This document shows positions 23,756-23,842 of a stretch of 64,000 nucleotides of DNA, piece by piece. How positions within the stretch are numbered: position 1 is the first letter of the stretch; the number at the start of each line of letters is the position of its first letter. The stretch lies in the NCBI RefSeq assembly GCF_058153355.1, contig NZ_CM177019.1. The stretch is one strand, 5' to 3'. The notes under the pieces were generated by a model. The model was not told where the DNA came from, made no database searches, and saw only the letters and a list, made by a program, of their open reading frames with translations. The position numbers were made by a program, and so were the translations under genes.

Positions 23756-23842
23756 GTCGGATGCGGCGTGAACGCCTTATCCGACCTACGGACAGTGCGT
23801 TTTGTAGGCCTGATAAGACGCGGCAAGCGTCGCATCAGGCAA
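23756..23842. repeat. REP (repetitive extragenic palindromic) elements
   Basis: GTCGGATGCGGCGTGAACGCCTTATCCGACCTAC ... GTAGGCCTGATAAGACGCGGCAAGCGTCGCATCAGGC: canonical REP palindromes in the gap between the convergent thiQ and yabI. Confidence 0.85.

Follow-up and report, generated by a model that had tools for sequence, protein, structure and literature searches.

Introduction

REP/BIME elements have been known since the 1980s. The REP family consensus used here consists of a GTAG head and the imperfect palindrome GCC[G/T]GATG...TTATC[C/A]GGC, 30–40 nt in length. Within transcripts, REPs are barriers to 3'-to-5' exonucleases, with malE-malF as the model case (PMC5927463; PMC12306157), and they have also been described as attenuators, including via Rho, and as elements that gyrase, Pol I and IHF bind (PMC3333891; PMC2817692; PMC6379681). 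Where a REP lies at most 15 nt from a stop codon, ribosomes reportedly stall as they terminate and the gene upstream is translated less, a result of Liang, Rudd and Deutscher (2015) that is given here as relayed in PMC12306157. Binding and cleavage by TnpA-REP needs the GTAG tetranucleotide (PMC3333891). BIME copy number is known to be polymorphic between strains, and the araD-araA BIME of MG1655 has served as a substrate for cleavage and recombination by TnpA-REP (PMC3333891).

Here, we analyze a stretch of 64,000 nucleotides (the window), in which four sites, located in the gaps thiQ/yabI, araA/araD, caiA/caiB, and caiE/caiF, are true copies of the well-known E. coli REP/BIME hairpin repeats and hence an already described feature. 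The finding itself matters little, as the family is long known and the sites also bear REPs in K-12.

Genomic context and structure of the repeats

The gene order in the window is thiP-thiQ, yabI, araC, araBAD, polB and, further along, caiTABCDE, caiF, and carB. From thiBPQ to carB, the window corresponds to about 96 kb to 32 kb of K-12 MG1655, read in reverse complement. Its identity is ~96.3% to K-12, O157:H7, and ST131, ~98.1% to R32_14_1F and 2020CK-00188 (both labelled E. coli), and ~93.5% to other Escherichia species, and it therefore represents a somewhat divergent E. coli lineage.

A preliminary description, made from the letters of the window, had placed REP palindromes at 23756–23842, 29160–29243, 57077–57165, and 61532–61612. 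These ranges are accurate to within about 5 nt, and the strings that it quoted (GCCTGATGCGACGC...GCGTCTTATCAGGCCTAC and the variant GCCGGATAAG) are found in the window sequence. Its account of the gene setting agrees with the matching E. coli annotation: thiQ (plus strand)/yabI (minus strand) and caiE (plus strand)/caiF (minus strand) are convergent, and araA>araD (within araBAD) and caiA>caiB (within caiTABCDE) are co-directional intra-operon gaps. Where it spoke of REP units at four gaps, the family assignment stands, but each site is a doublet, i.e., a BIME unit, and not a single REP. Likewise, the units called canonical belong to the family, but the long Z units among them are of the Z2 form and constitute no special canonical class. 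The eight REP units of the 64-kb window form four tail-to-tail doublets in which the CTAC/GTAG ends point inward:

23756–23789, plus strand: s1a, REP unit of Y type with the foot GTCGGAT...ATCCGAC, a compensated variant, and a CTAC tail
23790–23803, no strand: tail-to-tail linker of site 1, GGACAGTGCGTTTT, without IHF consensus
23804–23841, minus strand: s1b, REP unit of Z2 type with one extra loop base, GTAG intact
29141–29155, plus strand: GTAG and a fragment like an inverted REP head after the araA stop codon, GTAGCTGCATCAGGT, 15 nt
29163–29198, plus strand: s2a, REP unit of Z2 type with the tail CTGC in place of CTAC
29199–29211, no strand: tail-to-tail linker of site 2, GCGCTGTGATTTT
29212–29241, minus strand: s2b, REP unit, short Y-foot variant of 30 nt, GTAG intact
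57078–57113, plus strand: s3a, REP unit of Z2 type, exact consensus match with 0 mismatches
57114–57125, no strand: tail-to-tail linker of site 3, GGGAGCACGAAT
57126–57160, minus strand: s3b, REP unit of Y type in which GTCG replaces GTAG
61533–61566, plus strand: s4a, degenerate Y-like REP unit without CTAC tail
61567–61579, no strand: short linker of site 4, CTGGAGAGCAACC
61580–61614, minus strand: s4b, REP unit with a Y foot and the variant upper stem GCGATGC...GCATC, GTAG intact

All eight units are extragenic and lie in four non-coding gaps, 4–31 nt from stop codons. They were scored with a covariance model, R1, that was built from the eight units and run unfiltered across the whole window. 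At site 1, s1a (57.2 bits) has one mismatch to the K-12 Y consensus and a hairpin of −19.2 kcal/mol, the stem of which begins 8 nt past the thiQ stop codon (23745–23747). The stem of its partner s1b (52.6 bits; −21.3 kcal/mol), which is deleted in O157:H7, begins 19 nt past the yabI stop codon (23860–23862, minus strand). At site 2, the stem of s2a (51.5 bits; two mismatches to the published Z2 consensus) begins 22 nt past the araA stop codon (29138–29140). The head of s2b (44.5 bits) ends 14 nt upstream of the araD ATG (29255), beside a GAAGGAG Shine-Dalgarno sequence, and a near-identical unit adjoins araD in Yokenella. The stem of s3a (54.6 bits) at site 3 begins 11 nt past the caiA stop codon (57064–57066), and the head of s3b (53.9 bits; three mismatches to the Y consensus) ends 35 nt upstream of the caiB ATG (57195). 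Site 4 begins closest to its upstream gene, with the stem of s4a (50.7 bits; −14.1 kcal/mol) 4 nt past the caiE stop codon (61526–61528). Its second unit, s4b (55.5 bits; −17.8 kcal/mol), is decayed in K-12 and duplicated in HSP425, and its stem begins 31 nt past the caiF stop codon (61645–61647, minus strand).

The GTAG tetranucleotide is intact in five of the eight units, while s2a has GCAG, s3b has GTCG, and s4a has none. The three units without GTAG/CTAC are therefore probably inactive as TnpA-REP substrates, although they remain family members by sequence. The s3b tetranucleotide is GTAG in K-12 and O157, and GTCG is found also in ST131. The 15-nt fragment after the araA stop codon is kept as GTAGCCGCATCCGGT in K-12 and O157 and can pair with the head of s2a (inverted repeat I4); we infer from its sequence that this remnant may be an eroded REP unit.

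RNA folds of the four gaps have z-scores of −2.6 to −4.5, and both units of site 3, and likewise of site 4, join into one long hairpin in the minimum-energy fold. A separate feature of the araA-araD gap is a pairing of the linker segment UGAUUUU (29205–29211) with GGAGUCA (29246–29252), which is predicted in both the MFE and the centroid fold and comprises seven pairs (three of them G-U). GGAGUCA overlaps the Shine-Dalgarno sequence of araD, and K-12, O157, and ST131 have kept the two segments. Such a pairing with the araD Shine-Dalgarno region would be weak, and any role for it is speculative.

Evidence for REP identity

The REP identity proposed in the preliminary description held in a REP consensus scan, by matches to the K-12 Y and Z2 consensus sequences as well as by separation with the covariance model. 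Chance matches, or structures peculiar to each locus that merely resemble REPs, are so improbable as an explanation of the palindromes that they can practically be neglected. The tail motif CTTATCMGGCCTAC occurs seven times in the window with up to two mismatches, as compared to 0.32 expected occurrences, which speaks against chance. The eight units score 44.5–57.2 bits with R1, their opposite-strand shadows 11–18 bits, and the next unrelated candidate 11.6 bits. This leaves a gap of 33 bits between the units and the background, and the list of four sites is therefore complete for the window. Two further 10-mer matches, at 4088–4097 and 34507–34516, are not REPs by inspection or by the covariance model.

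Because R1 was trained on these very sequences, models built elsewhere (K-12 consensus, Rfam) were also applied. The published K-12 Y consensus (PMC2817692) matches s1a and s3b and the published Z2 consensus (PMC2817692) matches s2a and s3a, in each case with 0.00 matches expected and zero in 100 shuffles. Four of the eight units are recovered in this way at 0–3 mismatches, and the other four align with them. The stems support the alignment, with 99% of cells paired and compensatory changes at five of 13 pairs, e.g., in the feet GCCGGAT/ATCCGGC, GCCTGAT/ATCAGGC, and GTCGGAT/ATCCGAC. When the partner was slid by 1–3 columns as a control, just 31–46% of cells were paired. All eight units fold at −14.1 to −21.7 kcal/mol into a stem with a one-base interruption.

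The family is also present at other loci and in other genomes, which argues against locus-specific structures, and we found no points in favour of chance or locus-specific resemblance. REP copies occur at further loci in K-12, ST131, and other strains, and megablast with sites 1, 2, and 3 as queries gave, for each E. coli genome, median counts of 11, 5, and 8 places, respectively. The density of eight units in 64 kb is near the published ~600 units per K-12 genome (PMC3333891). The RefSeq K-12 record holds no repeat_region features.

REPs have no Rfam family to themselves, and the sole family built on REP hairpins is naRNA4 (RF02564), which corresponds to REP325. Within the stretches searched, it gave sub-threshold matches at the four sites (24–39 bits) and at no other place; none reached the gathering score of 59.5, the best of the four sites having 39.0 bits. 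The four sites are ordinary REPs and not copies of the REP325 cluster. Rfam families that do pass their gathering thresholds in the window are SgrS at 18383–18609 (minus strand), the leucine operon leader at 13475–13624 (plus strand), and the TPP riboswitch at 20366–20465 (plus strand), upstream of the thiBPQ operon.

Comparison with described BIME classes and related systems

Among the BIME classes of Gilson, Bachellier, and Hofnung (per PMC3333891), BIME-2 comes closest. Judged by sequence, sites 1–3 are of BIME-2 architecture with one unit each, i.e., inverted Y and Z2 units around a short linker of 12–14 nt, and the 85-bp unit at araA/araD is tandemly repeated in other strains. They differ from BIME-2 arrays in that each site of the window is a single BIME unit, and s2b departs from the class as a shortened Y-foot unit. 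Site 4 consists of two Y-like variants and therefore lacks the BIME-2 composition; the class 'atypical' fits it better.

Like BIME-1, or RIB/RIP, elements, the sites place two palindromic units in inverted orientation at the 3' ends of transcription units. In BIME-1, however, Y and Z1 units surround a long L linker with an IHF site, whereas the linkers here have 12–14 nt and the Z units are Z2. The IHF consensus WATCAANNNNTTR has no match in the four gaps, whichever strand is read, and none of the four sites is therefore BIME-1/RIB. This assignment was rejected on account of the short linkers, the missing IHF consensus, and the presence of Z2 in place of Z1 (PMC2817692 consensus). REPINs, which are mobilised by RAYTs (PMC3116915; PMC2817692), likewise share the inverted REP doublets, and the single long hairpin at sites 3 and 4 resembles them. 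Their arms are near-identical copies, in contrast to the different unit types (Y versus Z2) combined here, and no RAYT gene was found in the window.

Two functionally described systems are similar in placement. The doublets in araBAD and caiTABCDE resemble the malE-malF REP stabiliser in their intra-operon position just past the upstream stop codon, in a stable hairpin without U-tract, and in the predicted polarity of upstream over downstream genes, a likeness that is positional and structural only. The stems after thiQ, caiA, and caiE (8, 11, and 4 nt) lie inside the 15-nt limit of ribosome-stalling REPs as that limit is relayed in PMC12306157, in contrast to those after araA (22 nt), yabI (19 nt), and caiF (31 nt), which lie outside it.

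Proposed function

The remark in the preliminary description that REPs inside operons can modulate the stability of mRNA and the differential expression of cistrons corresponds to the established general model (malE-malF, PMC5927463; roles, PMC3333891). Our literature searches found no functional studies of ara or cai REPs, and the gene names of these sites are absent from the supplements of PMC12306157. By analogy with the known cases, we infer that the REPs would affect the stability and polarity of ara and cai mRNAs. Taken as a whole, the reading that the sites are REP-family doublets (three Y+Z2 and one Y-like pair) whose hairpins would form mRNA decay barriers or attenuators appears very probable to us.

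Briefly, transcribed units would fold as hairpins of −14 to −22 kcal/mol without U-tract, or as one long two-unit hairpin. The REP hairpin would then block 3'-to-5' exonucleases and may also partly attenuate transcription. As a consequence, araBA would be expected to outlast or outnumber araD, and caiTA to outlast or outnumber caiBCDE. The doublets in the convergent gaps would mark out the 3' ends of the messages of thiBPQ, yabI, caiTABCDE, and caiF and shield them. The stems after thiQ, caiA, and caiE (8, 11, and 4 nt past the stop codon) are within range for ribosome stalling and may thereby lower upstream translation. Spread and copy-number change of the units would be the work of the REP-associated transposase TnpA-REP/YafM, the gene of which lies beyond the window.

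As DNA, the units may be bound by gyrase, and such binding would be of most use between convergent gene pairs. The stronger proposal of a role mainly on DNA, in which the doublets would serve gyrase (and DNA polymerase I) as binding sites and relieve or insulate positive supercoiling between convergent genes or downstream of induced operons, appears doubtful to us. It can build on the over-representation of gyrase cleavage sites in BIME-2, especially in Y units and independent of transcription (PMC6379681), and on the description of REPs as topological insulators and as binding sites of IHF, Pol I, and gyrase (PMC3333891). Three of the doublets are indeed Y + Z2, and two of the sites lie between convergent genes. 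However, this over-representation was shown for some BIME-2 arrays with multiple copies (e.g., sucC-sucB) and not for single units, and a DNA-level role leaves the stop-proximal non-REP hairpins of other genera, described below, unexplained. A DNA role through gyrase is, moreover, compatible with the RNA-level explanation.

Hairpins at the same positions in other genera

The proposed barrier function at the intra-operon sites can be viewed against the same gaps in other organisms. For the cai operon, the locus was compared from 80 species representatives, using 45-nt windows and a cut-off of −16 kcal/mol. Among the caiA-caiB gaps of other species and genera, 73 of 79 have a hairpin at or below −16 kcal/mol, as compared to three of 77 caiT-caiA gaps, and the distance from the caiA stop codon to the start of the hairpin is mostly ~15 nt or less. 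Escherichia, Citrobacter, Salmonella, and Pseudocitrobacter have REPs of their local type in this gap. The hairpins of Proteus, Providencia, Serratia, Leminorella, Budvicia, Limnobaculum, Endozoicomonas, Shewanella, and Ferrimonas are of unrelated sequence. The non-REP caiA-caiB hairpins have z-scores of −3.3 to −6.0 and were equalled by none of 60 dinucleotide shuffles, and the Proteus stem keeps its pairing through UA/GC/AU and wobble changes.

A comparable picture emerges for the araA-araD gap, which is 47–88 nt long and contains a G+C-rich stem in six of six other genera. These stems are REP-like in Cronobacter and Yokenella and have terminator-like U-rich tails in Atlantibacter and Cedecea. 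Their support from shuffles is strong in two genera, moderate in two, and weak in two, and shuffle controls are weak for G+C-rich REP arrays and for two of the six ara gaps. At caiE/caiF, the place of the REPs of Escherichia and Citrobacter is taken in Providencia and Phytobacter by bidirectional terminator hairpins of textbook form.

Hairpins other than REPs also occur elsewhere in the cai operon of the window. G+C-rich hairpins lie at 58415–58450, after caiB, and at 60046–60064 and 60103–60122, after caiC. They sit a few nt past the stop codons, and the fold of the caiC-caiD gap has a z-score of −4.0. Together with the REP doublets, a stem-loop is therefore present in every long gap of the cai operon.

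Position is thus conserved across genera after caiA and araA, while sequence is not. This suggests that the conserved feature may be a hairpin at these positions, of which the REP would be the local embodiment, and the cross-genus hairpins would indirectly back the functional remark of the preliminary description at araA/araD and caiA/caiB. Positional evidence of this type is the kind needed to separate selected function from selfish spread of individual REPs. It carries the potential bias that a long gap within an operon may survive only if it is occupied by something, and REP insertion may favour pre-existing hairpins. We propose, as a tentative idea that is rather less probable than its opposite, that REPs in the Escherichia-Citrobacter-Salmonella group replaced, or insert at, ancestral operon-punctuating hairpins and that unit number tunes operon polarity, so that natural alleles with 1–3 BIMEs would tune the AraA:AraD ratio.

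The terminator-like structures of other genera raise the question of whether the REP sites are Rho-independent transcription terminators. Here, too, G+C-rich hairpins stand at the ends of thiQ, yabI, caiE, and caiF, and the orthologous gaps contain bidirectional terminators at caiE/caiF (Providencia, Phytobacter) and U-rich tails at araA-araD (Atlantibacter, Cedecea). Nevertheless, we regard this reading as highly unlikely. Two of the sites lie inside operons whose downstream genes need expression, and the units belong to a dispersed repeat family. No U-tract follows any of the eight units and a terminator scan of the four gaps returned no site, and intrinsic termination was rejected on these grounds.

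Copy number and integrity among E. coli strains

The preliminary description had proposed to compare copy number and orientation at these sites across strains. Orientation is identical wherever the element occurs, and copy number is polymorphic at three of the four sites. The exception is caiA/caiB, where the doublet is essentially fixed in E. coli: 5,331 of 5,426 genomes match at ≥80% coverage, and the span is 410–432 bp in all 39 sampled full-length rows (query 421 bp). Outside E. coli, this gap holds six units in E. albertii and E. whittamii and seven or eight in another Escherichia species, which amounts to 3–4 BIME units in these species against one in E. coli. The E. whittamii gap (L012, 7144–7529) has a 35-nt linker, GGACCATGCGTATTTTCACGCAAGGTGCGGTGTTC, between REP units in three tandem copies, a different BIME architecture at the same orthologous site.

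The repeat at araA/araD is an 85-bp unit composed of Z2, linker, short Y, and TTCAAC. The window, ST131, R32_14_1F, and 2020CK-00188 have a single copy of it, O157:H7 has two copies, and K-12 has three. In an evenly spaced sample of 59 matching genomes, ~8 have one unit, ~17 have one unit and an unrelated 54-bp G-rich element, ~11 have two units, and ~23 give split matches, as K-12 with its three units does. The 54-bp element, CCCCTCGCCCCTTTGGGGAGAGGGCCGGGGTGAGGGG, is palindromic, lies between the BIME unit and araD in about one quarter to one third of the sampled E. coli, and replaces the usual Shine-Dalgarno context of araD (e.g., strain 13P460A; L007, 355–419). It seems to resemble the boxC repeat.

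At caiE/caiF, 18 of 39 sampled rows have the doublet, eight have two doublets (span ~513 bp, as in strain HSP425), and 13 are decayed as in K-12, with a span of 390 bp and 18.8 bits for the best unit. The thiQ/yabI site is mostly intact, and its Z2 unit is deleted in O157:H7. Polymorphism or decay in some lineages at three of the four sites speaks against the exact element being tightly constrained.

These alleles bear on the view that the doublets are selfish or neutral repeats in harmless gaps and have no host function at these sites. It draws on the variable unit number (one, two, three, or more units at araA/araD; decayed, double, or quadruple at caiE/caiF; a unit lost at thiQ/yabI in O157), on the six to eight units at caiA/caiB in other Escherichia species, on the loss of GTAG/CTAC in three of eight units, and on the absence of the whole cai-fix region from one strain. 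Such a reading is plausible, most of all at thiQ/yabI and caiE/caiF with their many decayed alleles. The near-invariance of the caiA/caiB doublet across 5,331 genomes, the unrelated hairpins at the same positions in many genera, and the pairing-preserving changes in Proteus are difficult to reconcile with it, and the experimental literature in general shows REPs affecting mRNA fate. For the four sites taken together, we consider it unlikely, though less so than a role mainly on DNA. A barrier or attenuator function of the transcribed doublets remains our preferred reading, and the natural allelic series (one, two, three, or more units at araA/araD; decayed, double, or quadruple at caiE/caiF; one or two at thiQ/yabI) could serve to test REP copy number against operon polarity.

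Comparison of the strains revealed further differences around these loci. Strain 2020CK-00188 (L005, 16737–17202), which is among the closest to the window at thiQ/yabI, is without caiF, caiTABCDE, fixABCX, and yaaU; its carB is followed by a small gene for a YgdI/YgdR-family lipoprotein and then by kefF. The apaH/folA gap has 622 bp in the window and is filled by a toxin-antitoxin pair, ccdB (45368–45682) and ccdA (45685–45918), on the minus strand. In K-12 it has 67 bp with one REP and no ccd pair, and annotated CcdA/CcdB are found at apaH/folA also in O157:H7, ST131, R32_14_1F, and 2020CK-00188. This pair presumably matches the chromosomal ccd system described for O157. Finally, a variable region between rluA and djlA, at ~36117–37566, aligns with an O157:H7 segment that carries an espY1 type III effector and an IS4/Tn5 transposase remnant; the same place is occupied by yabP/yabQ in K-12 and by a REP doublet in ST131 and 2020CK-00188.
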